Source of the DNA: Myxococcota bacterium
GTDB taxonomy: Bacteria; Myxococcota_A; UBA9160; JAFDDA01
Assembly (NCBI GenBank): GCA_965228475.1
Contig: OZ245817.1
Coordinates: forward strand, 3,328,001-3,392,000
Direction of reading: 5' to 3'
DNA length: 64,000 bases
The position numbers and the translations under genes are program-made. Positions 3 to 25,539 of the stretch are shown in pieces. Position 1 is the first letter of the stretch. Each line of letters opens with the position of its first letter. The notes under the pieces are model-generated. The model was not told where the DNA came from, did no database searches, and worked only from the letters and a program-made list of their open reading frames with translations.

Positions 3-350
3 GAGTTCGACGTGCCGGTCACCGTCGAAGCCTTCATCGGGTCTGCGATGGAGTACCACGATGAGATTGGTGCGCTGAATTGGGATGGAAGCGCGTTCGA
101 GCTCCTCGGATTCAGCCCCTGCGACCCCTTTGGCGGCCCGTTCTGTTCGGGCGAGGAGTTGATCGGTTCAGGGGCCTATCCCGCGCACGCACCGACTCGC
201 TTCTTTGCACTCTTTACCGCGACCACGGTTCTTCTCCCGTCGTTCAAGCTGACCCGAATCGAGGGCGTAACCCCCTTCCCGGTGCCCGAACCGTCGCTTG
301 TTCTGCTGCTCGGGATCGGCCTCCTCGCCATCGCGCACCGGCACGGCTGA
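3..350 (+). CDS. PEP-CTERM sorting-domain protein, C-terminal part (5' truncated by window edge)
   Basis: Frame open from the window start; ends VPEPSLVLLLGIGLLAIAHRHG (PEP motif + TM helix + basic tail). Confidence 0.75.
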   Translation, partial: EFDVPVTVEAFIGSAMEYHDEIGALNWDGSAFELLGFSPCDPFGGPFCSGEELIGSGAYPAHAPTRFFALFTATTVLLPSFKLTRIEGVTPFPVPEPSLVLLLGIGLLAIAHRHG

Positions 351-3143: not shown

Positions 3144-4676
3144 TTGAGGCGCTCTGCCGACACGTGGGTTCCCCTCGCCCTCGGCGTGCTGGCGGTCGCC
3201 GTCTGGGCACCGCTCGTCCCCGTCGGCTTCGGCATCGCGGACGAAGGCTGGCTGCTCTCGGCGATCGATCGGCTCGTCGACGGCCAGCGCCTCTACGCGG
3301 ACGTCTACCGGAGCTACGGCCCGGGCCTCTACTGGACGTTCGAAGGCCTCTTCCGGGTCTTCGAAACGAGCACGCTCTCGGTTCGCTGGGTCTGGCTCGG
3401 TGGGCTCGTCCTGCTGAGTGCCGGCAGCTTCTGGCTGGCGCGGCCGTGGCTCCCGCTGTGGGCGGCCGCCGCCGTCGGACTCGTCCCGATCTTCCTGCGC
3501 CCGCCGGCCCACAAGACCTTCGTGCCGCTGGCCTACCTCGGCGTGCTCTGGCTCTGCCGGGGAGTCGCGGAGCGCCACGGTCGCCCGCTTCGGTTCGTCA
3601 CCCTGCTGGCACTCGGGGCCGGCTTCGGCTTGCTCGCCCTCTTTCGCCAGGAGGCGAGCGCCTTCGGCATGCTCATCGCCTGGGGCACGGCCGCGTCGAA
3701 CCCGGTTCGGGAGGGCCGGAGCGCACTCGGCCACACGCTGTGGGCGGCGTGGAGCCTCGGCCTGGGCGCAGCCCTCGTCTGGCTCCCGGTGCTCGGCGTG
3801 TTCGCCGCGACGGGCGCGCTCTTCGATGCGGCCGAGCAGCTCGTCTTCGCCGGAGCGCGCGGCAACGCGGCGATGTCGATCCCCTTCCCCGAATGGAGTC
3901 GCGTCCTCACCGGGCCCGAGCGGCTCCGGACGTCCCTCTTCTTCCTTCCCGGGATCGTGGCAGCGCTCGGCTTTCTCGTTTCGTGGCGATGGCTGCGCTC
4001 GCCGGAGCGGCGGACGGCGGGCCTGATCCTCGCCCAGTGCTCGGCGATGGCGGTGCTGGCCTACGGGATCTTCGCGTCGCGCTCAGATTTCCCGCATCTC
4101 CTCCAGGCGCTCGTCCCGGCGGCGCTCGTCTGGGCCGCCTGCGTTGCGGAGGGGTTCCGGGCCACTCCCGCATCGCGCGTCCTGGCCGCGGGCCTCGCGC
4201 TCTGGCTGATCGCCGGCACGGCCCTGCTCTCGAACGTTCCGGACTACTACGCGCGGCGGGCGCGGGCCGTGCCGATGCCGGTTCCCGGGGGCGAGGTGCT
4301 CGTCAGCCCGGAAGAGGCCCGGGTGCTCGGAGAGCTCGTCGCGGCAGTCCACCGGGAGGTTCCCCCCGGCCAGCCGATCCTCGCCCTCCCCTACATCCCC
4401 GGCCTCTACCACCTGGCCGATCGCCCCAACGCGAGCCGGCACGACGCCGTCCTGCCGGGCTACGCCACCGAGGCGATCCAGAGCGAGGTCATCGAAGCCG
4501 TCGACCGCGACCGGGTGCCGCTACTGGTCATCTACGCCCGCGCCATGGACGGCCGCCACCAACGGACCCTGGGGAAATCCGCGCCCACCCTGACGGCCCA
4601 CCTCCGCCGCCGCTACGAACCGATCGAACGCATCGGCGGCTTCCGGCTGCTGCGCTGGAGAGAGCCGACCCGCTAG
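3144..4676 (+). CDS. Multi-pass membrane protein, probable GT-C fold (ArnT/PMT-like) glycosyltransferase
   Basis: Acidic DEG motif after first TM, LYADVYRSYGPG, ~11 hydrophobic segments, soluble C-terminal domain; in operon with GT2. Confidence 0.65.
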   Translation: MRRSADTWVPLALGVLAVAVWAPLVPVGFGIADEGWLLSAIDRLVDGQRLYADVYRSYGPGLYWTFEGLFRVFETSTLSVRWVWLGGLVLLSAGSFWLARPWLPLWAAAAVGLVPIFLRPPAHKTFVPLAYLGVLWLCRGVAERHGRPLRFVTLLALGAGFGLLALFRQEASAFGMLIAWGTAASNPVREGRSALGHTLWAAWSLGLGAALVWLPVLGVFAATGALFDAAEQLVFAGARGNAAMSIPFPEWSRVLTGPERLRTSLFFLPGIVAALGFLVSWRWLRSPERRTAGLILAQCSAMAVLAYGIFASRSDFPHLLQALVPAALVWAACVAEGFRATPASRVLAAGLALWLIAGTALLSNVPDYYARRARAVPMPVPGGEVLVSPEEARVLGELVAAVHREVPPGQPILALPYIPGLYHLADRPNASRHDAVLPGYATEAIQSEVIEAVDRDRVPLLVIYARAMDGRHQRTLGKSAPTLTAHLRRRYEPIERIGGFRLLRWREPTR

Positions 4677-5530
4677 AGCGCCGCGGCCACGCGCCGGCGG
4701 TGCACCACCCACGCCGCAAGCACCACGACCCCGAACGTCGCCACGCCGGGCTCGGGGAGGACCGACGCGTAGAACGCTCCGTAGAGCGCGTCGGCGTAGA
4801 CGTCGTAGCCCGCCGGGGTCAGGTGGATCGAATCGGCGAAGGCGGCGTCGGGCCCCGAGAGGGTCGCGTCGGGGAGGCTCGGGTCGCCCGGCGCGATTCC
4901 GAGCTGGGGAATCCCGAAGGCGACCTGCATGAGACCGTGCGTGTCGACGACCGTGACGCGGCTCGCGAGAAGCGGATCCGCAGCCACGTTCTGGGCGACC
5001 CCGTCGAGGAAGAGGTCGATCAGCAGGTTGGCCAGGGCCGGCGTGGACCCGGCGGGCGGGTTGGGAACGTAGTCGTAGCCCGAAAAGAGGATCTCGGCCG
5101 AACTCGAGGATGCGATCTGGGTGAGAACGGAGGTCGTGGCGCTCACGGTCTGCGAGATCACCGTGATGGGGTTCCCGCCACCAAGAACTCCACCGATCAG
5201 GTCGTTGCCTCCCACGATGAGATGCGCGACCACGGCATCGGGATGGGCAGCGAACAGGCCCGCGACGTCGTAGGTTCCCCCGCTCCACTGCGCCGCGGTA
5301 CTCCCCCCGACGCTGGCGTTGGTGACGCCGAGCGCGCCGTGACCGTTCGCGGCGAGGGTCGACTCGATCGACGGGCCGGCCAACACGCCCCAGCTGTCGC
5401 CGAGCAGCACGATGGGGGAGGCCTGGGCCGGCCCGGCCAGCAGCAGGAAGCCCACCAACAGGATCGTTGCGGAGTCCGCGCCTCGCAGCGCCTCCCGGCA
5501 TCGTCCTTCGCTTCGTCGCAGGTGGCCCAC
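4673..5530 (-). CDS. SGNH/GDSL hydrolase with PEP-CTERM-like anchor
   Basis: Signal peptide ending AQA; LLGDSW block I, GGND block III, DSIH block V; C-terminus LPEPGVATFGVVVLAAWVVHRRR; start uncertain. Confidence 0.8.
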   Translation of the reverse strand: MGHLRRSEGRCREALRGADSATILLVGFLLLAGPAQASPIVLLGDSWGVLAGPSIESTLAANGHGALGVTNASVGGSTAAQWSGGTYDVAGLFAAHPDAVVAHLIVGGNDLIGGVLGGGNPITVISQTVSATTSVLTQIASSSSAEILFSGYDYVPNPPAGSTPALANLLIDLFLDGVAQNVAADPLLASRVTVVDTHGLMQVAFGIPQLGIAPGDPSLPDATLSGPDAAFADSIHLTPAGYDVYADALYGAFYASVLPEPGVATFGVVVLAAWVVHRRRVAAAL

Positions 5531-5649: not shown

Positions 5650-6381
5650 CTAGTTCCTGCGGCCGCGCGGCCAGAGACTCCAGGCGAGGCCCAGGGCGAT
5701 CCACCCGATCGGCCTCGGCTCCGGGACGGTGAGACTCGCCGACCACATCCCCGACGCGGACTCCGCCGGGCTTCCCGACGCCGTCGCAGAGGCCAGGACC
5801 GACCAGTGGTACTCCCCGGCCGCGAGCGTTCCCGTGCCGGGCCCGGCCGCTTCGTTGCAGCTGGCATCGAACTCGTAGAGCACCGCGCCGACCGCATCGG
5901 ACAGCGTCGCCCGAAGATCGGCCGCACCCCCGGCGCACGTCGCCGAGAGCGCCGCGCTCGCCACGAAGGAAGTCGCCTCGTCGACGAGGAACGTCACCTC
6001 GAACGTCGAGCTGCCGTCTCCCGATCCGTTGTCTCCGGAGGCGCTCAGCGCGCCGGAGGCGTCGAACCCGTCGATCCGCAGGCTCGACTCCTGGCTCGAT
6101 CCGCCGCTGGCGAAGGCCGGCGGGGGACAGCCAGGGTCGTCGGGCGGACAGCCCGGGTCGTCCGTAGCGCCGAAACCTGCCGTGCCGAGCCAGGGGTCGG
6201 AGTCGTTCGCCGGGTCGAAGGCGTCCGAGTCCGAGCCGCCGATGCTCCCGGCGAAGGCGCCCGCCTGTACCTCGCGGGTCTGGTCGACGATGGTCAGCGC
6301 GGCCGCCGAACCGGCCGTCCCAAGACAGAATCCGAACACCGCGGCCCACAGTCCGAGGGCCCTCTTCTCAACCAACATCAC
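5650..6381 (-). CDS. PEP-CTERM surface protein
   Basis: GGAGG SD; signal peptide ending AAA-LT; Ser/Gly/Asp-rich body; C-terminus VPEPRPIGWIALGLAWSLWPRGRRN. Confidence 0.8.
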   Translation of the reverse strand: MMLVEKRALGLWAAVFGFCLGTAGSAAALTIVDQTREVQAGAFAGSIGGSDSDAFDPANDSDPWLGTAGFGATDDPGCPPDDPGCPPPAFASGGSSQESSLRIDGFDASGALSASGDNGSGDGSSTFEVTFLVDEATSFVASAALSATCAGGAADLRATLSDAVGAVLYEFDASCNEAAGPGTGTLAAGEYHWSVLASATASGSPAESASGMWSASLTVPEPRPIGWIALGLAWSLWPRGRRN

Positions 6382-6621: not shown

Positions 6622-6638
6622 TCGGCACGGGTCTTGAA
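6622..6638 (+). promoter_or_regulatory. sigma54 promoter for the 6682-10255 operon
   Basis: TCGGCACGGGTCTTGAA: GGCACG -24 box, TTGA variant at -12, correct spacing. Confidence 0.6.
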
Positions 6639-6681
6639 AGAACTCCGGAACGCCGCCCCGCGCCGGGGCGTGGAGGAAGCG

Positions 6682-8769
6682 ATGCCCGTCCGACCCGTTC
6701 GCCGTTCCGTTCTGTGCCTTTCCCTCTTGCTCGGCTTCACCCTCGCGCCCACGTGCGGGCCCGCGCCGACCCCCACGATCCGGATCGTCACGCCCGAGAC
6801 CGGCGACGTGGTCTTCTCGTCCCTGCCCTCCGTGGGCGGGCCCGGTGTTCGCGTCGAGGTGGAGGTCGAGAACGCGCTCGGCCGGATCTTCGTCTTCGTG
6901 AACGGCCAGGCCGCCTCGCGCATCGGCTTCACGAACCGCTACGAGCTCGACCTCGCCCTCGACGCAGACCAGCGCTTCCAGCCCATCCTCGCGGAGATCC
7001 AGGTCGGCACTTCGACCGTGGCCGTGGATCGGGTGGTCGCCCTCTGGGGCTTCGAAAGCGACGAGAACGATCCGGTTCCCGACGCCATCGCCCTGCGCAT
7101 GAACGACGAGGACTCGGTCCTCGACCACGTGGAGCCGTCGCTGACGGACGCGGTCCAGGCCGCCGTCGACCTCGAGGCGCTCGTCGAGGACCTGCTCGGC
7201 CAGCTCGAGTTCCTCCAGCCGGGCTTCTCCCTGCCCTTCGGCATCCGCATCGGCGACGCCGGCGGCACGGTCGCCGCGACCATCCCGCCCTACGAAGTCC
7301 GCATCAACGCGCAGAACACGCCCGCGGCGTCGCCCGGCGGCACGCTCGGCCTGACCGTCGATGCCGACGACGTGGCACTCCGGCTCGAGCTCCCGCTCGA
7401 GGGCTTCGTGATCAACAACGGGACGTGCGTGATCCTCGTCGGCTTCGACGCGTCGCTGCACGTGGATCTGGATCTCGAGCCCGGCGCGGACCCCCACGGC
7501 CTCGGCTTCGAGCAGATCGGCCCGGTCGACTTCGACCTCGACGGCTTCTCGGCCTCCCTCGGCTCGGGCGGCGACTGCCCCGACGTGGTCGTGAACAACT
7601 TCCAGTCCTTCCTCGACGGCTCGGGCTTCTCCGACGTCCAGGACGAGATCGCGGGGGCCTTCAACGACCTGCTCGGCGGAAGCGGCGTCTCCATCGCCTC
7701 CCTGCTCGAGGAAGGCTTCAACGAGAGCGAACTCGACCTCTCGGGCGTGATCGGCTCCTCGCTCTCGGGCTCGCTCGACCTGACCTACGGCTCGATCCCC
7801 GAAGACGACGACGGCGTCACCGCCTTCCTCGATGCGCTGATCGGCGTGCCGACGCCCGCCGGCCCGACGCCCTTCTGCCCGAGCACGATCTGCCCGCGGC
7901 CGGACTTCGACTCCGTCTACCTCGGCAACGGCCCGCTCACGCTGCCCGACTTCGCCAACGACGGGCAGATGACGCCCCCGGTCGGACTCATCGGGTTCCC
8001 GGGCTATCAGCCGCCGCAGCCCTACGACCTGGCGGTCTCGTTCAGCAACCGCGTCATCAACAAGATGCTGCTCGACATGATCGAGCAGGGACTGCTCTCG
8101 GCGACGATCACCGAGGTCCCGGACCCGTTCTCGGCCGGGACGATCCCGCTCAGACTCGACGTCCTCGACCTCTATTTCCTGATCGAGACGGGCGCCACCT
8201 ACCTGGGCCCGATCGCCGCCGAGATGCCCGACGGCTCGGCCACCCCGGTGCGCATCACCGTGGCGCCCGAGATCCCGGCGCTCGTCGTGCCCACCGAACC
8301 GGGCGGGGTCCTGATCCCGGACGGCGTGCCGCGGCGCGAAGTGCAGATGGCCCAGCTCGCGCTCCGCGTGCAGATGGAAACGTCCGCCGGCTGGAAGACC
8401 CTCATCAAGGGCTACGTCGACCTGAGCGCGGACCTCTCGATCGGGCTCGGTGGAAGCGGCCTTTCGGCCGGCCTCGGAACGCCCGCGATCGAGGAGTTCG
8501 TCCTCGTCTACAACCTGCCGGACGTGCCCCCGACCGTGCTGCGCTCCTTCCTCGAGGACAACTTCGCGGCGATCGCCGGCGCGGTGGACGTGGCCTCGGG
8601 CGAGATCGCGAGCCTGCCGCTGCCGGCCTGCGTGCTCGGGCTCCAGCTCGAACCGCTCCTGCTGCGCGAGCACGGCGGGGACTTCTTCACCGTCTACGCC
8701 TCCCTCGAGGAGGTCCAGAACGAAGTCCTGGCCTGCGGCGACCCGATCTTCACCCCGCTTCTGCCCTGA
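6682..8769 (+). CDS. Large secreted protein or lipoprotein of unknown function; possible BPI/LBP (TULIP)-like domains
   Basis: GGAGGA SD; basic N-terminus + hydrophobic core ending LAPTC; strong coding GC3 pattern; motif resemblance to BPI/LBP judged by eye only. Confidence 0.75.
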   Translation: MPVRPVRRSVLCLSLLLGFTLAPTCGPAPTPTIRIVTPETGDVVFSSLPSVGGPGVRVEVEVENALGRIFVFVNGQAASRIGFTNRYELDLALDADQRFQPILAEIQVGTSTVAVDRVVALWGFESDENDPVPDAIALRMNDEDSVLDHVEPSLTDAVQAAVDLEALVEDLLGQLEFLQPGFSLPFGIRIGDAGGTVAATIPPYEVRINAQNTPAASPGGTLGLTVDADDVALRLELPLEGFVINNGTCVILVGFDASLHVDLDLEPGADPHGLGFEQIGPVDFDLDGFSASLGSGGDCPDVVVNNFQSFLDGSGFSDVQDEIAGAFNDLLGGSGVSIASLLEEGFNESELDLSGVIGSSLSGSLDLTYGSIPEDDDGVTAFLDALIGVPTPAGPTPFCPSTICPRPDFDSVYLGNGPLTLPDFANDGQMTPPVGLIGFPGYQPPQPYDLAVSFSNRVINKMLLDMIEQGLLSATITEVPDPFSAGTIPLRLDVLDLYFLIETGATYLGPIAAEMPDGSATPVRITVAPEIPALVVPTEPGGVLIPDGVPRREVQMAQLALRVQMETSAGWKTLIKGYVDLSADLSIGLGGSGLSAGLGTPAIEEFVLVYNLPDVPPTVLRSFLEDNFAAIAGAVDVASGEIASLPLPACVLGLQLEPLLLREHGGDFFTVYASLEEVQNEVLACGDPIFTPLLP

Positions 8770-8812
8770 CCCGCGTCGGAACGCATTCGGAAACCTGGAA
8801 AGGAACGTTGTC

Positions 8813-10255
8813 ATGACTCATTCGATCCGCACTCTGGCGCGGGGACTCGCAATCGCGATCGCCGTCGCCCTCTCCTTCGACGCCCCGGCGGCGCCGATCC
8901 TCCACGGCGACTTCGACGGCGCGACGGTGACCTTCAACGCCGTCACCGAAGAGGCCCTCACCCCCGGCGACGGCCCGATCCTGTTCGGAACGCCTTCGGT
9001 CGTCGGCGACGAGCTCGACTTCAACCCCACCTCGTTCGCGGCCTCGGCGACCGGGGCCGGGGGCGTCGACGTCACCGACGGCCTGCTGCAGTTCGAGGTG
9101 AAAGCGCGCCCGGGCTACGTGATCGACGAGATCACGTTCTCGGAGCGCGGGGACTACACCCTCGTGGGCGGCGGCGGCGCCGGAACCTTCGCCTCCGTCC
9201 AGGCCGCCGTCTTCGGGGAGATCCTCGAGGTCTCGGGCATCGAGCTGGCCGCGGCCATCCGCTTCCAGGGGAACTTGACCTTCACGCCGTCCGACGGCGA
9301 CTTCGACCTCGCGACCGACGGCGTCGCGGTCGCGCGGATCTTCCACGGATCCATCGCCTTCGATCTCCAGGCCGTGCTCGACGCCGCGGGCGTGACGGGC
9401 GAAGTGACCCGCGTCGGGTTCGCCCTCGACAACACGCTCGTCGCGACGAGCGAGTTCGGGACCAGCGCCTTCATCGCCAAGAAGGACCACGACGGCGCCG
9501 CGGTCGGCGTCGCGGTGGTGACCGACGTGCCCGAGCCGCAGCCCGGCGAACTGCTCGCCCTGGCGGCCCTCCTGCTGTTCGTCACCTCCGGGCGCATTCG
9601 CTTCCGGGGCACGCTCGCGGTGCTCGCCGGGCTCGCGACCCTCTCCGGGGGCTCGGCGATGGCCGCCCCCTTCACCTTCGAGAGCGGAACGATCACGGGG
9701 ACCTACGACTTCGCCACGGGGCGGACGCGCGGCGCCCTCGAGTTCGACCCGAACGACGGCTCGCCGGTGGACTACTCAGACTACAGCCTCTCGTTCGACT
9801 TCGACGGCCTGGTCGCCCTCGTCGGCGGAACCTCGGCCAACGGCACGTGGTCCGGCGACGCCGAGACCTCGGCCGGCCGCAACGCCCGCCTGCGCATCAC
9901 CATCGACGACGGCGACCCGGGCGCGTGGACCGCTTCACCGGGGCCCGGCCGGACGGAGCTCGGGCTGGGAACCCACGTCGTCCTCGATGCACCGATCGCG
10001 TTCCTCCCGAACGAAGAGCGCGACGTCCCCCTGCTCCCGGAGCACTACACCGAGCTTCGTGTCCTCGCCGAGTTCGACCTCGTCGACTGGGTCTGGGACG
10101 CGAGCGAGTTCGCGGGGAACGTGACCGGCTACGCGTTCAGCGGAACGTTCGAGCTCCAGGCGGTGCCGGAGTCTTCCCTCGTCATCCTGCTCGGCGGCGC
10201 CGCGATTGCGCTGGGCGTCGTGCGCAGCGGCCTGCGGCGCCCCTGCCTTTCCTGA
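8813..10255 (+). CDS. Tandem double PEP-CTERM protein (two signal peptides, two PEP-CTERM anchors)
   Basis: Signal ...DAPA-AP; internal VPEPQPGELLALAALLLFVTSGRIRFRG; second signal TLAVLAGLATLSGGSAMA-AP; terminal VPESSLVILLGGAAIALGVVRSGLRR. Confidence 0.8.
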   Translation: MTHSIRTLARGLAIAIAVALSFDAPAAPILHGDFDGATVTFNAVTEEALTPGDGPILFGTPSVVGDELDFNPTSFAASATGAGGVDVTDGLLQFEVKARPGYVIDEITFSERGDYTLVGGGGAGTFASVQAAVFGEILEVSGIELAAAIRFQGNLTFTPSDGDFDLATDGVAVARIFHGSIAFDLQAVLDAAGVTGEVTRVGFALDNTLVATSEFGTSAFIAKKDHDGAAVGVAVVTDVPEPQPGELLALAALLLFVTSGRIRFRGTLAVLAGLATLSGGSAMAAPFTFESGTITGTYDFATGRTRGALEFDPNDGSPVDYSDYSLSFDFDGLVALVGGTSANGTWSGDAETSAGRNARLRITIDDGDPGAWTASPGPGRTELGLGTHVVLDAPIAFLPNEERDVPLLPEHYTELRVLAEFDLVDWVWDASEFAGNVTGYAFSGTFELQAVPESSLVILLGGAAIALGVVRSGLRRPCLS

Positions 10256-10283
10256 TGCGCCGCCGTCGCGAAGCGCGGCCCGG

Positions 10284-10308
10284 GGGGCGGGGCACGGTGC
10301 CCCGCCCC
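10284..10308. terminator. GC-rich palindrome between convergent genes (terminator or REP-like)
   Basis: GGGGCGGGGCAC-g-GTGCCCCGCCCC perfect inverted repeat. Confidence 0.5.
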
Positions 10309-10323
10309 TCTTCCGCGAAACGC

Positions 10324-11019
10324 TCAGGCGGTGCCTTCGACCCTGCGGATCGCCGAGAGCATGACGGTCTCGAGCTGGTCCACGAAGTCCATGGCCACGG
10401 CCATGGCTTCCTCCGAATCGCCGCGCTCGATGGCGTCGAACATCGCCCGGTGGAGAGGGACGTAGCCATCCGGCACGAAGACCGGCGCAGGCGAGAGCTC
10501 GTCGGGCCGCATGTGGTCGATCTCGTTCAGCACCCAGAGCAGCGGGAAGAGCTTGGCCGGCTCGAGCACCGCACGCAGCATGGCCAGGTTGTGGGAGGTG
10601 AAGCGTGCGGCGTCCGAACGCGCCTCGAAGGCGCGCTCGAGATGATCCCGCGCGTCGTCGAGATCCCTCGCCCCGAGCCGCCGCACGGCTGTCCGCACCA
10701 TGATCCGATAGAAGAACCGGATCAGATCGACCGCGTCGTGCGCGAGCGTCGCGGCCGGTGGGAACGTCCCGACGCTCCCCTCCGGAAGATGCGCCAGCAC
10801 CCCGGGCCGCCAGCGGCCGGGGCCGAGCGCCGCGGGGCCCTCCTCGGTCTGCGTCACGACCCGGAGCCGGAGGAGCTCCGCCAACGCCAGCTCCGGGGTC
10901 GGCTCGGGCGTCGGACCGGAAGAGAGCAGTTCACCCGGCTCGAGCTTGCCTTCGAGCACGGCGCTGATCACCCCCGTGACGGCTGCGACCGTCGGGTCGA
11001 CTCGATTCGTGGCGTCCAT
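10324..11019 (-). CDS. GntR/FCD-like regulator with atypical HTH
   Basis: GAGGAG SD; EGKLEPGELL GntR-like start; FCD-like C-terminus HRAMFDAIERGDSEEA. Confidence 0.65.
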   Translation of the reverse strand: MDATNRVDPTVAAVTGVISAVLEGKLEPGELLSSGPTPEPTPELALAELLRLRVVTQTEEGPAALGPGRWRPGVLAHLPEGSVGTFPPAATLAHDAVDLIRFFYRIMVRTAVRRLGARDLDDARDHLERAFEARSDAARFTSHNLAMLRAVLEPAKLFPLLWVLNEIDHMRPDELSPAPVFVPDGYVPLHRAMFDAIERGDSEEAMAVAMDFVDQLETVMLSAIRRVEGTA

Positions 11020-20899: not shown

Positions 20900-23833
20900 C
20901 TAGAAGAAGAGGCGAAGCTTGGCGCCGAAGGAGTGGTAGAGCCCGCCGTCGCCCCAGTGCCCGTCGTAGCCGATCGACATGCCCCCGCCCGAGCCGTGGG
21001 GCTGGAAGAGAAGATGGACGCCGACGTCGAGCCCCTGCTCGGTGTCCTGGGCGTCGATGGTGAAGTCGCCGGTGCGCGCGGCGGCGCCGCGGAAGCGCGA
21101 CTCGAGCTCCCGATCCGCCCCGGTCCAGATGCTCCGCCACTTCACGGTCAGCTCCGGCGTCCAGGTGCCGTGAGCGAAGCCCGGCCCCCGGTCCGAGAAC
21201 GGATTCTGGAAGTGGCGATAGAAGAACCGCCCGCCGAAGGAAGTGGCGACCAGCGTGTTCTCGCGCTCGGCGATGCGCAGGTCGAGGGAGCTCGCCCCCG
21301 ACTCGCTGATGTCGTCTTCCTGGATCCACGTCACGTCGAAGGCCGCGACGGGCTCGAGGTGGAAGTTTCCGAACGCCTGAACCCAGGACAGCTCGAACAG
21401 CGCGAGGATCCGGTTGCTGTTGAAGTCGCCCTCGGCGAAGAGGGCGTCGCCGAACTGGCCCTGCGGGTTGATGCCGAAGAAGTCGATCTGGCGGTCGTGC
21501 TTGTGGTCGCCGCGGCCGTAGCCGAAGGCGGCTTTCGCGCGCGCCCCGGCGTAGCGGAACGTCCCGGCCATGCCGATCTCGAAGGTGTCGAGGTCGCCTT
21601 CGCCGCCCTTGTTGACGTGGATGTCGGTCGAGGTGATGCCGCCGAACATCGAGACCAGCCAGTTGCGCGTGACCCGCCAGTCGACGCCGCCCATGATCCC
21701 CTGCTCGCGGAAGCGGGAGACGCGGAAGTCGCTTCCGCTGTCGCGCTTGCCGAAACCGGTGAGGGCGCGCATCCAGGCCGACCAGCCGCGCGGTCCGCAG
21801 GGGACGTCGCCGCGCTGGGCGGGCCGCAGGCCGTAGAGAGAGGGCTTGCACCACGGGCGCTCTTCGATCGCGGTCTCGGCGATCATCCGCCCGATCCGCG
21901 CCGTCTGCCCGGTGTGCGCGTCGTAGGCCTCGGGATGGAAGGCGTCGAGGAGCACCGGGAACTGCGACGCCTCGAAGTCGTCCAGAGCGAGCAGGACCGA
22001 GTTCAGGCTCGCGCTGAACTCCCGGGATGCGAGCACCCGATCGAGGTAGCGCCCGACGGCCCGCTGGTTGTCGGTCTCCCCGACCGAGGCGTAGCTGTTG
22101 CGGCGGATGCGGAGGATCACGTCGTTCGCCGTCTGATCCACGATGAACCGCAGGAGCGCCGTGTCCTGGGGCGTGTTGACGAAGGCGCCGGCCAGGCCCG
22201 CATCGGAGTGGACCACGGTGAAGTCGGCATCGCGCAGCGGGGTGAGCGGGGCGATGCCGAGCGTCCCGTTCAGGTTGGCCGCGCCCGCGAAGCTGAACTG
22301 GCCCGCGGTTCCATTGAGCGGATCGATCAGCGTGGTGAGCCCCGTCCCGGGCGCCATCGTGAAGGCGCCCCCGTTGAGTCGGACGGTGGTGTCCGTCTGG
22401 AGGGTGCCGGCGTTCAGGCTGATCGCGTTGGTGAAGGTCGCCGTGCCGTCCAGGTCCCAGACGCCGGCGCCGGCCGTTCCCGAAGGCGGCATGTCCGGAT
22501 CGGCGTTGATCTCCAGGGTCTCGAAGCCGGTCACCGCGGTCTGGTTGAAGTCAAGCCGGCCGCCGCCGTTGCCCTGGAGCAGGAAGCGGTCGCCCGCGCC
22601 GCCGCCGTCGGCGCCACCCTCGATGTCGCCGTCGATGAGGCTCCCGCTGGTTCGGAGGTCGAAGACGTCGTCCCCGGCTCCCAGGTCCACGTCACCGAAG
22701 AGCGAGCCGCGGTTCTCGATCGTGTCGGCGCCGCCACCGCCGAGGATCGCGGTACCGGGAACCGCGGTGTTCGAAGCGTCGAAGCCGTCGACGCCGAAGA
22801 GATCGCCGCGGTTGATGAGGTTGTTCGTGCCGCCCGCGGTGAAATCGATCGCCGCTCCGGGAGTCCCACCCCCGCCGGTCAGCTGGTCCGTGCGAATCGT
22901 CCCGTCGTTGACGATGGTGGTATTCGGCCCGGCCACGATCGCCCGGGCGCCCTGCCCTGCCGCCGAGATGCTCCCGTTGTTGACGATTTCGGCGGTCGTC
23001 GGGTCCGCGTCCCCGCCCCCGGTCCGGATGGCGATCGCGTTCGGGCTCGCATCCGGGCCGGTCACGCGTACCGAGTTGTCGTTTTGGATGATGTTGTTGG
23101 CGCCGGCGTCGATGCCGATCGTCGTGGCGCCCGCGTTCGCCGCATCGAGGCCGATCGTTCCGGTGTTGAGAACGTCGACGGTCATCGGATCGCCGTCGCC
23201 GGCCCCGACCCGGATGCCGGTCACGCCGTCGGCGCCGCCCCCGGTGGGCGTACGGATGATGCCCGCGTTGGTGACCTGCGCACTCGCGCCGCCCTCGATG
23301 CCGGTGCTGTTGTCCCCGGAGAGTTCGATCACCCCGCCGTTCACGATCGTGTTGGACGCGGTCTCGGCGATGCCCCTCCCGTTGCCCGTGACGTTGATCG
23401 TGCCGTTGTTCTGGACGTCGACGGTGTCGCGGTCCGCATCGCCGGTCCCGACCTGGATGCCGTCCCCGGCGCCGTCGACCGTGATCGTGCCGTTGTTGAC
23501 GATCGTGTTGCCGTCGTTGGCGGCGATGCCGTCCCCACCCGCGCCCGTGGTATCGATCGTCCCGCCGGTGTCGACGGTGATCACGTTGTTGTCCCGGACG
23601 TCGATCCCCACCGGGCTCAGCGTCGCGTCCGAGTTCACCGTGATGGTCTGGCCGTCCTCGACGCCGGTGCCGAAGCCCCCCGTCCCAGGCGGTGCGCAGG
23701 TGATGACGTTCGGGGCCGTGACGGCGCAGTCCGCCCGGGCCTCTCCCGGATCGAGCGCGAAGGCCCCCACGGCGAGGAGGGCCGACACGAGCAGGCGGCG
23801 GGCGAGGGTGTGGGAGGGCGCGGGGGGCGGCAT
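20900..23833 (-). CDS. Autotransporter (type Va) outer membrane protein
   Basis: AGGAG SD; signal peptide; Gly/Asn/Thr-rich beta-helix repeats (I-x-NNGTI); linker helix TDNQRAVG; C-terminal beta-barrel ending LRLFF. Confidence 0.88.
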   Translation of the reverse strand: MPPPAPSHTLARRLLVSALLAVGAFALDPGEARADCAVTAPNVITCAPPGTGGFGTGVEDGQTITVNSDATLSPVGIDVRDNNVITVDTGGTIDTTGAGGDGIAANDGNTIVNNGTITVDGAGDGIQVGTGDADRDTVDVQNNGTINVTGNGRGIAETASNTIVNGGVIELSGDNSTGIEGGASAQVTNAGIIRTPTGGGADGVTGIRVGAGDGDPMTVDVLNTGTIGLDAANAGATTIGIDAGANNIIQNDNSVRVTGPDASPNAIAIRTGGGDADPTTAEIVNNGSISAAGQGARAIVAGPNTTIVNDGTIRTDQLTGGGGTPGAAIDFTAGGTNNLINRGDLFGVDGFDASNTAVPGTAILGGGGADTIENRGSLFGDVDLGAGDDVFDLRTSGSLIDGDIEGGADGGGAGDRFLLQGNGGGRLDFNQTAVTGFETLEINADPDMPPSGTAGAGVWDLDGTATFTNAISLNAGTLQTDTTVRLNGGAFTMAPGTGLTTLIDPLNGTAGQFSFAGAANLNGTLGIAPLTPLRDADFTVVHSDAGLAGAFVNTPQDTALLRFIVDQTANDVILRIRRNSYASVGETDNQRAVGRYLDRVLASREFSASLNSVLLALDDFEASQFPVLLDAFHPEAYDAHTGQTARIGRMIAETAIEERPWCKPSLYGLRPAQRGDVPCGPRGWSAWMRALTGFGKRDSGSDFRVSRFREQGIMGGVDWRVTRNWLVSMFGGITSTDIHVNKGGEGDLDTFEIGMAGTFRYAGARAKAAFGYGRGDHKHDRQIDFFGINPQGQFGDALFAEGDFNSNRILALFELSWVQAFGNFHLEPVAAFDVTWIQEDDISESGASSLDLRIAERENTLVATSFGGRFFYRHFQNPFSDRGPGFAHGTWTPELTVKWRSIWTGADRELESRFRGAAARTGDFTIDAQDTEQGLDVGVHLLFQPHGSGGGMSIGYDGHWGDGGLYHSFGAKLRLFF

Positions 23834-23979
23834 CGGGACTCCTGGGACGGCGAGCGGCCGAGTATGGCGGATCGGGCCCGGCCCGGCTCGATCGATTTCG
23901 GCCCACGCTTCCAACCCTTGGACACCCGAGCTGCCGCCCGGAGTTCCGGCTTCCTGCGCGCCGCGGCGGGGGCGCGGGC

Positions 23980-25539
23980 CTATTCGTCGAGGTAGCCGAG
24001 CGCCTTCAGCCGCTCGCGCATGGCCGGGTCGAGCTCGGTCTTCTCGGCCTCGCCCCGCGGGCCCTGGGCATGGGCCTCGGAGCGCTCTACGAGGCGCTGG
24101 TAGGCGGCCCGGGCCTCCGGGGAGGCACCGCGCTGGAGGAGGTCCGTCTGCTCGCCCGGGTCGCGCTCGAGGTCGTAGAGGGAGCGGCCCGTGCCCCGGC
24201 CCGGCCGGTTCAGCCGGCCGTCGGGCTCCTCGACCAGCTTGAAGCGGGCCTCGCGGTGCGACTGGTTCCGGGGCTTCCCGATCACGCCCTCGGTCACCAC
24301 GGAGCGGTGCGGGTCCGCGAAGGCGCCCGAGAAGAACGAGACGCCCTGGTCCTGCTCCGTGAGGCACGAGACGCCCAGGTAGTCGCAGAGGCTTCGCCGC
24401 AGATCCACCAGCGCGGCCGGGCAGGAGTTCACCGCGGGCGCAATCCCCGGGAGCCGGGCCAGGAGCGGCACACCCGTCTCGCCCGAAAACAGGCCGTGGC
24501 CGTGGCCGAGCCAGCCGTGCTCGTGGAGCGCCTCGCCGTGGTCGGAGGTCACGACGATCGCCGTCTCCTCGGCCCCGGGCTGGCCGGCGAAGCCGTCGAG
24601 GAAGCCGCCGAAGGCCCGGTCGAAGTGGGCGACGCCCTCGTCGTAGACGAGCTCCATCAGCGCGAGGTTGGCCGGGAGGCCCTGCTCGACGAGCGGGCGG
24701 CGGCGTTCGTCGAGGGCGAGCTTCGCGATCTGCTGCTGGGAGGCCGGCGAGACGGGGCGGTCGTCCGCTTCGATGTCGGCCCACCGCGCCTCGAGGGACG
24801 CGCGCGGCACGCCGTGGAAGGGCGAGTGCGCATCCATGTAGTGGAGGTAGAGGAAGTAGGGACGGCTCGCGTCCGGGCGGGAGCGCAGCCAGTCGAGCCC
24901 CGCGCGGGTGACCTTCTCGCCCGGGGTCGTGTTGTCGGCGAAGGCGTCCTCGTAGGTCTGGAAGCCCTGGGCGAAGCCGAGCTCGCGCTTCAGCCACGGG
25001 TTGCTGACGAAGGCGGCGGTCTCGTAGCCGGCCGCGGAGAGCGCTTCGGCCAGGGTCGTGTGGCTCGCCGCCAGCACGTCGGATTCGACGACGCGCTCGC
25101 CGCCCGCGGCCCGGGCGGCCCGGCCGCGCAGCTCCGGGTGCGAAATCACGCCGTGGGCCGAGGGGACGAGGCCCGTGAAGAGGCTCGCGATCGAAGGCTT
25201 CGTCCAGGGCGCCTGGCTCTCGGCCGCGGTGAAGACGATCGCCTCGCGAGCGAAGGCGTCGAGCCGGGGCGTCGTGGCGGGCCCGCCATAGGGCGCGAGG
25301 CGATCGCGCCGCGTCGTATCCGTCAGGATGAGGACGAGGTTGCGGCGCGACTCGCCGGAGGGAGGCGGAAGCGGCTCGCAGCGGGCCGCCGGGAGCGGCG
25401 GCAGCGGCTCGGGCGGCGGCTCGGGGGCGCAGCCCGAAGCGCTCCCGACGAGAGCCGCCAACACGATCGCGAGCGCGAGCCGCGATGCATCGCCGCGCCG
25501 GCCCGTCCCGCCTCTGCTGCTTCGTCGCCCGCTGCCCAC
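23980..25539 (-). CDS. Sulfatase/alkaline-phosphatase superfamily lipoprotein
   Basis: ASGC lipobox; LILTDTTRRD, APWTKPSIASLFTG, HYMDAHSP, SDHGE, LYDLERDPGE, LKALGY; start uncertain. Confidence 0.85.
   Translation of the reverse strand: MGSGRRSSRGGTGRRGDASRLALAIVLAALVGSASGCAPEPPPEPLPPLPAARCEPLPPPSGESRRNLVLILTDTTRRDRLAPYGGPATTPRLDAFAREAIVFTAAESQAPWTKPSIASLFTGLVPSAHGVISHPELRGRAARAAGGERVVESDVLAASHTTLAEALSAAGYETAAFVSNPWLKRELGFAQGFQTYEDAFADNTTPGEKVTRAGLDWLRSRPDASRPYFLYLHYMDAHSPFHGVPRASLEARWADIEADDRPVSPASQQQIAKLALDERRRPLVEQGLPANLALMELVYDEGVAHFDRAFGGFLDGFAGQPGAEETAIVVTSDHGEALHEHGWLGHGHGLFSGETGVPLLARLPGIAPAVNSCPAALVDLRRSLCDYLGVSCLTEQDQGVSFFSGAFADPHRSVVTEGVIGKPRNQSHREARFKLVEEPDGRLNRPGRGTGRSLYDLERDPGEQTDLLQRGASPEARAAYQRLVERSEAHAQGPRGEAEKTELDPAMRERLKALGYLDE

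Follow-up and report, generated by a model that had tools for sequence, protein, structure and literature searches.

The gene at 8813..10255 of the window, by which we mean the whole stretch of 64,000 nucleotides that was analysed, is probably a fused gene pair, from whose single product cleavage is predicted to yield two exported proteins. The evidence points to an in-frame fusion of two neighbouring PEP-CTERM genes that is recent in its lineage, and we take the gene to be a genuine case, probably a young one, of a PEP-CTERM sorting variant that is widespread and has apparently gone unpublished. A sequence-only reading of the window had proposed the anatomy of the product: a signal peptide, a first domain, a PEP-CTERM-type tag, a second signal-like stretch, a second domain and a second tag. 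This order is borne out by the sequence, by alignment with homologs and by the score on a signal matrix, and the landmarks given with it (VPEP from 9527, a proposed cut after 9664, i.e. residue 284, and VPES from 10163) were found in place. The features are as follows.

8813..10255, + strand: whole ORF (P0001), 480 aa plus stop, open in contigs of four sequencing runs and in a second assembly
8813..8890, + strand: predicted N-terminal signal peptide, residues 1-26, ending A-P-A, with a putative cut site
8891..9526, + strand: domain 1, residues 27-238 (212 residues), an acidic, Cys-free predicted beta-sandwich of a stand-alone PEP-CTERM protein family
9527..9610, + strand: inner PEP-CTERM-type tag, residues 239-266, with VPEP, a hydrophobic helix and a basic RIRFR tail
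9596..9598, + strand: codon 262, ATT (Ile) here, Met in the product of the second assembly (P0005) and ATG in the contig of run X4
9611..9664, + strand: h- and c-region of the predicted inner signal peptide (residues 267-284), which ends in A-M-A
9665..10162, + strand: domain 2, residues 285-450 (166 residues), acidic and Cys-free, no relative found in the searches given below
10163..10255, + strand: terminal PEP-CTERM-type tag and stop, with VPES, a hydrophobic stretch and a basic tail

Translation of 8813-10255 (+) revealed 480 codons in one frame and no inner stop. The single uninterrupted ORF of the earlier reading is thus confirmed by translation, by the contigs of four runs and by the second assembly, and gap-free contigs pass over the joint, where a check of read support had been suggested, in X1, X2, X3 and X4. 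Contigs of X1 and X2 span 8700-10400 with 0 differences; one of these two runs is possibly the source of the assembled DNA, so that they are perhaps not independent confirmation. A contig of X3 covers 8823-9695 with 0 differences, and a contig of X4 (a separate study, depth 2) covers 9542-10400 with 18 substitutions and 0 gaps. P0005 is an equal 480-aa fusion with 99% identity and three residue changes, and may come from one and the same strain as the X4 contig. Between 9527 and a point about 60 bases beyond the proposed cut, all forward frames are free of stop codons, and therefore the joint is not a mis-assembled overlap of a stop and a start; a one-base shift at the joint would leave at least 170 codons before a stop. 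An artefact of sequencing or assembly that joined two genes is very unlikely, with a probability close to nil. It could be suspected because the window sits within a single contig of 5.0 Mb (70% GC), which suggests long reads, and because the two fully spanning runs may be the source of the genome; against it stand the X3 and X4 contigs, the second assembly, the stop-free frames and two sister fusions of the genome that are confirmed in other assemblies or contigs.

Residues 1-266 appear to be a complete former PEP-CTERM protein, since the inner PEP falls into the same alignment columns as the terminal tags of 18 stand-alone domain-1 homologs, all of which terminate right behind their tag. Domain 1 was matched in 12 of 60 relatives. 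The alignment of 18 excludes four matches in frames of 940-988 codons; judged from the three of them that were inspected, they resemble a class of paralogs in which domain 1 continues into other domains. Tandem domain-1 paralogs were also seen in the present genome (L017, G000:C1 4437624-4439142 (+)), one stand-alone with a tag and one heading a frame of about 940 codons. Scoring of 8000 candidates revealed no further long fusion of domain 1 (7 other matches of 264-284 aa), and genomes of the same genus and the same family (89% and 81% complete) gave no match. The N-terminal signal peptide is indicated by a hydropathy of 2.21, by its A-P-A end and by homologs with signal-like starts at the equivalent place, and AGGA is found a short way upstream of the ATG at 8813. 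No Pfam or NCBIfam family was found for domain 1 or domain 2, nor a solved relative by sequence. The predicted structure showed a confident beta-sandwich at about residues 27-238 (pLDDT mostly >83), whose best fold match was Bdellovibrio Bd1399 (8okh; Z 11.6, rmsd 3.4, 157 aligned); Foldseek matches were weak (TM <0.4), and the Bd1399 match of this model seems to give no functional hint.

The inner tag aligns with the terminal tags of the 18 homologs, displays QPGE where these show GTxL-like residues and has a helix at residues 244-259 in the predicted structure. A PEP motif, a hydrophobic helix and a basic cluster are present in both tags of the gene, the terminal motif reading VPES here and VPEP in the depth-2 X4 contig, which encodes Pro at residue 454. 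The whole chain departs from the usual placement of a tag at the extreme C-terminus with no further membrane helix after the signal, as about 215 residues, with two further hydrophobic stretches among them, come after the inner tag, whereas each half alone conforms to it. An HMM trained on 85 terminal tags from the same genome found 94 terminal and 6 inner matches there. With this HMM the inner tag of the gene scored 13.2 bits, towards the lower end of what terminal tags reach (11.0-37.6). The curated models named for this check in the sequence-only reading did not bear it out: TIGR02595 left the inner tag unmatched and gave the terminal tag 14.6 bits against a cut-off of 16, and neither tag is among the 71 matches of PF07589 in the genome. 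Many ordinary tags of this genome go undetected by PF07589 as well, its 71 matches standing against 94 terminal matches of the HMM.

The stretch behind the inner tag follows a membrane anchor and has the n/h/c build of a signal, positions -3 and -1 being taken by small residues. We scored it with a home-made, crude matrix, which differs from SignalP and was trained on 84 N-terminal signals of the stand-alone PEP-CTERM genes of the genome, with cuts set by our own rule and the four fused ORFs left out. The inner stretch scored 19.5, compared with a leave-one-out median of 19.4 for true signals, and the best cut of the matrix lies 2 residues before the cut site proposed earlier. This score tops all 87 read-through and 287 mature-domain controls. 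Read-through sequences, taken in frame behind the stop of ordinary tags, reached a maximum of 14.8 with a median of -7.9, and these low scores indicate that simple loss of a stop rarely yields such a signal-like stretch. Mature-domain sequences had a 99th percentile of 2.0 and a maximum of 18.7; without a fifth fused ORF and with a wider scan window (n=240) the maximum was 6.5.

Searches for homologs of domain 2 revealed none among 2003 candidates of 107-343 aa, P0005 only among 8000 candidates of 264-840 aa, no usable match in the Atlas and, in 193 genomes, one weak match (E 5.6e-4) in an unrelated-looking frame. Domains 1 and 2 are both acidic and Cys-free, their third-position GC is 0.96 and 0.93, respectively, and a strong codon bias runs along the whole gene. 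Comparison of domain 2 with the single depth-2 contig of X4 showed 8 silent and 2 replacement changes. The predicted structure of residues 262-480 is unreliable and uninformative for the joint and for domain 2.

Under the topology rules of Sec export the chain would start outside, run through a helix to a basic patch inside, return outside through a second helix and end in a third. Signal 1 would start Sec export and then be removed, domain 1 would cross the inner membrane, and the helix of the inner tag would stop transfer and leave RIRFR in the cytoplasm. This basic patch could at the same time act as the n-region of signal 2, which would restart export; signal peptidase I would cut near residue 284 and free domain 2, which would then be held by its own terminal tag, and exosortase would perhaps handle each tag as usual. 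The cut by signal peptidase alone would separate both membrane-held proteins, even if exosortase ignored the degenerate inner tag. The genome encodes candidates for both enzymes, with two matches to the exosortase family PF09721 and three to signal peptidase I above the respective cut-offs. Of the release of two proteins claimed in the earlier reading, the two-protein outcome stands as the likeliest reading on the basis of layout and signal score, as a prediction from sequence.

Against the cut count the scores of both tags below the curated cut-offs, the degenerate state of the inner tag and the hydropathy of the inner h-region, which at 1.70 (2.21 for signal 1) is lower than in the other three hydrophobic stretches. 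If the inner signal were left uncleaved or uninserted, an uncut or half-working chain would result, i.e. a membrane protein of three helices whose two domains lie outside, or one whose domain 2 stays in the cell and is degraded. In addition to the weak h-region and the degenerate tags, this would agree with a passage of Haft et al. 2006 (PMC1569441) suggesting that atypically placed tags are possibly non-functional, and with a description of the uncut fusion protein HVO_0405 of Haloferax volcanii as unstable (PMC7157517). We nevertheless consider such a chain unlikely, because the inner stretch scores like true signals, its A-x-A end included, because A-x-A ends are kept in old joints of other genomes, and because domain 2 resembles domain 1 in being acidic and free of Cys, possesses its own terminal tag and differs from the X4 contig mainly by silent changes.

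Codon 262 is, from the sequences compared, likely the former start codon of the second gene. The Met at this position in the sister strain, together with the 18 stand-alone homologs of domain 1, argues for a fusion that is recent in the lineage. The sequence-only reading had set a polyprotein against a recent fusion; the recent fusion of neighbours is upheld on these two grounds, and the two cease to be rivals. Met 262 in the sister strain would also permit separate translation of protein 2, which counts against the cut reading. Protein 2 could then come mainly from an inner start at codon 262, gene 1 having lost its stop, and the long chain would be a by-product. A Met between tag and h-region in 55 of 202 database joints and an ATG kept at the joint of a related fusion (G093, see below) would agree with two start sites. 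In the gene studied here, however, codon 262 reads ATT with no clear ribosome-binding site ahead of it, and 9 of the 18 joints checked at the DNA level, including this gene and two of its three sister fusions, lack any in-frame start codon (ATG, GTG or TTG) near the basic patch. Moreover, gene 1 has no stop, so each ribosome starting at 8813 would make the long chain, which would need handling in any case. Two start sites are accordingly judged quite unlikely.

For the fusion of two genes into one chain with a predicted cut, related genomes offer possible intermediates. One genome (G037) carries two genes with an ATGA overlap, and in a sister species of the same genus (G093) the pair is fused, with 2 bases missing just before the ATG, although an assembly error is possible in G093. 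The split and the fused pair are loci L056 and L030, respectively, at about 1580-1590. An ATGA overlap with a signal-bearing gene was found for 3 of the 92 terminal-tag genes of the present genome. Since the basic tail of a tag and the n-region of a signal share their chemistry, coupled genes could fuse at little cost. We read these cases as a series that would lead from a coupled pair to a fusion with Met and further to a shortened joint from which the Met is lost, and we infer the order of the steps. The fusion may be kept by selection for fixed stoichiometry, such as the 1:1 output named in the sequence-only reading, or it may simply be tolerated; tolerance is at least as likely for this gene, because the fusion is known from one species only, which also counts against the cut reading. 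A recent accident under no selection and heading for loss would be in line with the single species, the two degenerate tags, a domain 2 without relatives and the fast turnover of PEP-CTERM gene sets described in Haft et al. 2006 (PMC1569441). We give a dying gene no more than a slim chance, as two assemblies and a strain diverged by about 2% all keep the frame open, the changes in domain 2 are mostly silent and the codon bias is strong.

The same layout occurs elsewhere in the genome. The genome-own HMM detected four inner tags of at least 12 bits, at 1533312 (+), 1690879 (-), 3337527 (+, this gene) and 4197822 (-), every one in an ORF with a second, terminal tag; the remaining two inner matches (about 9 bits) lie in short frames, a pattern that goes beyond chance. 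These four inner tags were picked without use of the signal criterion, and behind 4 of 4 lie a signal-like stretch and then another domain with a tag (signal scores 19.5, 18.1, 12.4 and 24.0). The three sister two-unit PEP-CTERM fusions are as follows.

G000:C1 1532850-1533959, + strand: sister fusion L021
G000:C1 1689878-1691356, - strand: sister fusion L022
G000:C1 4197019-4198542, - strand: sister fusion L023

The inner tags of the sisters pass TIGR02595 with 23.5, 25.1 and 16.9 bits (cut-off 16). The fusion at 1533312 is also present in two other assemblies, and the one at 4197822 is spanned by an X3 contig without difference and is followed by a third PEP-CTERM gene via an ATGA overlap. 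A search of runs X1, X2 and X5 for sister locus D gave no long contig piece and was uninformative. A fifth ORF at G000:C1 ~2539938-2544150 (+) displays a Cys-type inner tag, a basic patch, a signal-like stretch and a terminal PEP-CTERM tag.

A search of other genomes for an inner PEP-CTERM tag followed by a signal, proposed in the sequence-only reading, revealed the layout in 14 relatives and in 125 of the 146 best database matches. A profile of the joint detected 29 foreign loci with 8 joints in 193 genomes of the order, and a wider profile detected 29 foreign loci with 7 joints, 6 of them new, in 401 genomes of the phylum. Together, joints were found in at least 14 genomes of four other families, a figure that is a floor, as the best loci only were read. 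One locus (L031) has the exact plan of this gene with a different cargo. Another (L038:1507-1641) shows by eye an inner PEP-CTERM tag and then a signal with a lipobox-like L-G-S-C end, so that its second product may be a lipoprotein. A further locus (L026) was not counted as a joint, its inner tag having no signal behind it (score -5.5). In seven genomes (7 of 7) the joint connects related upstream parts to FG-GAP proteins. Both signals are kept in these joints, and the flanks share about 24-49% identity, one near-identical pair aside, which suggests an old fusion with two signals kept; repeated fusion of one operon is a possible alternative. The same joint thus appears, from these comparisons, to be old and kept in other families.

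Searching 1.84 billion representatives with the profile returned 760 matches at E <=0.001. Among the best 146 foreign matches of the 760, 125 have at least one joint, and of these 108 also have a terminal tag and 53 at least two joints; since the profile selects for the layout, these counts show spread and not rate. The signal test was passed by 202 of 251 inner tags in the database matches. The other 49 scored <8; many of them are signal-like by eye and some clearly are not. The top match, from a Planctomycetales genome, has 10 tags and 8 passing joints.

Cleavage of polyproteins by signal peptidase is characteristic of eukaryotic viruses and is regarded as rare in bacteria. A bacterial one of the same working plan is the cytochrome b-c1 precursor FbcH of Bradyrhizobium japonicum, for which our literature search found no paper. 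The Gn/Gc precursor of bunyaviruses (PMC5113920) is likewise a signal-peptidase polyprotein. Both consist of a membrane anchor, a short cytoplasmic linker and an inner cleavable signal, and both give two products. Gn/Gc and FbcH yield fixed subunits of one complex and have no sortase tag, whereas the cargoes described here are unrelated and modular, with up to about 10 units.

The substrates of PEP-CTERM/exosortase (EpsH, Xrt) systems, as characterised in passages of Haft et al. 2006 (PMC1569441), share with both halves of the gene a signal peptide, a fast-evolving acidic cargo low in Cys, a PEP motif, a helix and a basic tail. The genome resembles such systems also in its many copies (the 94 terminal matches) and in the presence of exosortase. 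According to the same passages the tag is 'virtually without exception' near the C-terminus, and no membrane helix lies between signal and tag, one small family excepted (PMC1569441). In the present gene, in contrast, a tag stands mid-chain, and behind it come another signal and another cargo with its own tag.

Tags within a chain have been described for other sorting systems. An inner MYXO-CTERM in MXAN_5598 of Myxococcus xanthus was explained by the fusion of a gene pair, for which the overlapping genes traA and traB served as a comparison, and processing was proposed (Guo, Haft and Wall 2025, PMC11980579). Unlike here, the tag of MXAN_5598 is of the Cys type and cut by myxosortase, an unrelated protease, and the second half is an outer-membrane barrel; the passages on this protein in PMC11980579 make no mention of a second signal peptide. 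In HVO_0405, which like this gene is a strain-specific gene fusion, a central PGF-CTERM is cut by the archaeosortase ArtA, an exosortase homolog (PMC6098224, PMC7157517). As archaeosortase cuts a central tag, a mid-chain position need not block this enzyme family. HVO_0405 differs in being an archaeal Tat substrate with a NifU domain downstream, and the passages on it in PMC6098224 and PMC7157517 mention no second export signal or tag.

The NCBIfam model NF033207, 'midcut-by-XrtH protein', would by its name describe an exosortase tag mid-protein, with a different tag and enzyme subfamily (XrtH); this layout is taken from the name. The model has 175 positions and a cut-off of 45 bits. It did not match P0001, and no match above the cut-off was obtained in the genome or in any of 301 genomes of the phylum. 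A weak match (model positions 28-112, 14.1 bits, E 0.037) covers the tag and the inner signal of the sister fusion P0002. In relatives, ten loci below the cut-off include three (L088, L091 and L094) with an inner IPTL-like tag and, behind it, a second signal-like stretch. NF033207 may already cover the design for another tag, and its curators may be aware of it; no paper on NF033207 was found. The literature searched, the main texts of largely open-access papers, contained no account of PEP-CTERM polyproteins or of chains that combine an inner signal with more than one tagged cargo, and a prior mention is possible. The earlier statement that the arrangement is undescribed thus holds for the PEP-CTERM chain with an inner signal, for which no paper was found, and fails for inner sorting tags as such, in view of MYXO-CTERM, PGF-CTERM and the NCBIfam midcut-by-XrtH family.

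A more general proposal, which we put forward tentatively, is that PEP-CTERM-rich bacteria possess a reusable polyprotein grammar. A joint of 45 residues, composed of tag, basic patch and signal and resolved by signal peptidase and exosortase, would zip operons into genes of up to about 10 units; it would form by a small indel at an ATGA overlap, lose its start codon and shorten, and selection would keep it and lock the output of the partners. If these fusions are a widespread natural class, annotation would change, as one 'protein' would be several. Exosortases were without experimental analysis at the time of a 2018 review, in passages noting that short C-terminal pieces are hard to detect and that a natural mid-chain tag made archaeosortase cleavage visible (PMC6098224). 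PEP-CTERM fusions could likewise make exosortase cleavage visible. The sister fusions, whose tags pass the curated cut-off, are a stronger test case than this gene.

A consensus scan found neither a sigma-70-type promoter on the + strand nor a terminator after the gene. A G+C-rich inverted repeat without a T run was seen by eye at 10284-10308, between the gene and a convergent gene at 10324. Upstream, an ORF of 711 codons (6634-8769 (+)) ends 43 bases before the gene, and a transcript is perhaps common to both. This ORF has no Pfam or NCBIfam match; its Atlas neighbours are unnamed proteins, mostly from Myxococcota, some with Glucodextran_B or LBP/BPI domains. Further PEP-CTERM-type genes lie nearby at 12-350 (+), 4673-5530 (-) and 5650-6381 (-), the second with a weak GDSL/SGNH hydrolase match. 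At 20933-23995 (-) the window also contains a large ORF that is by eye autotransporter-like, with a repeat-rich passenger.
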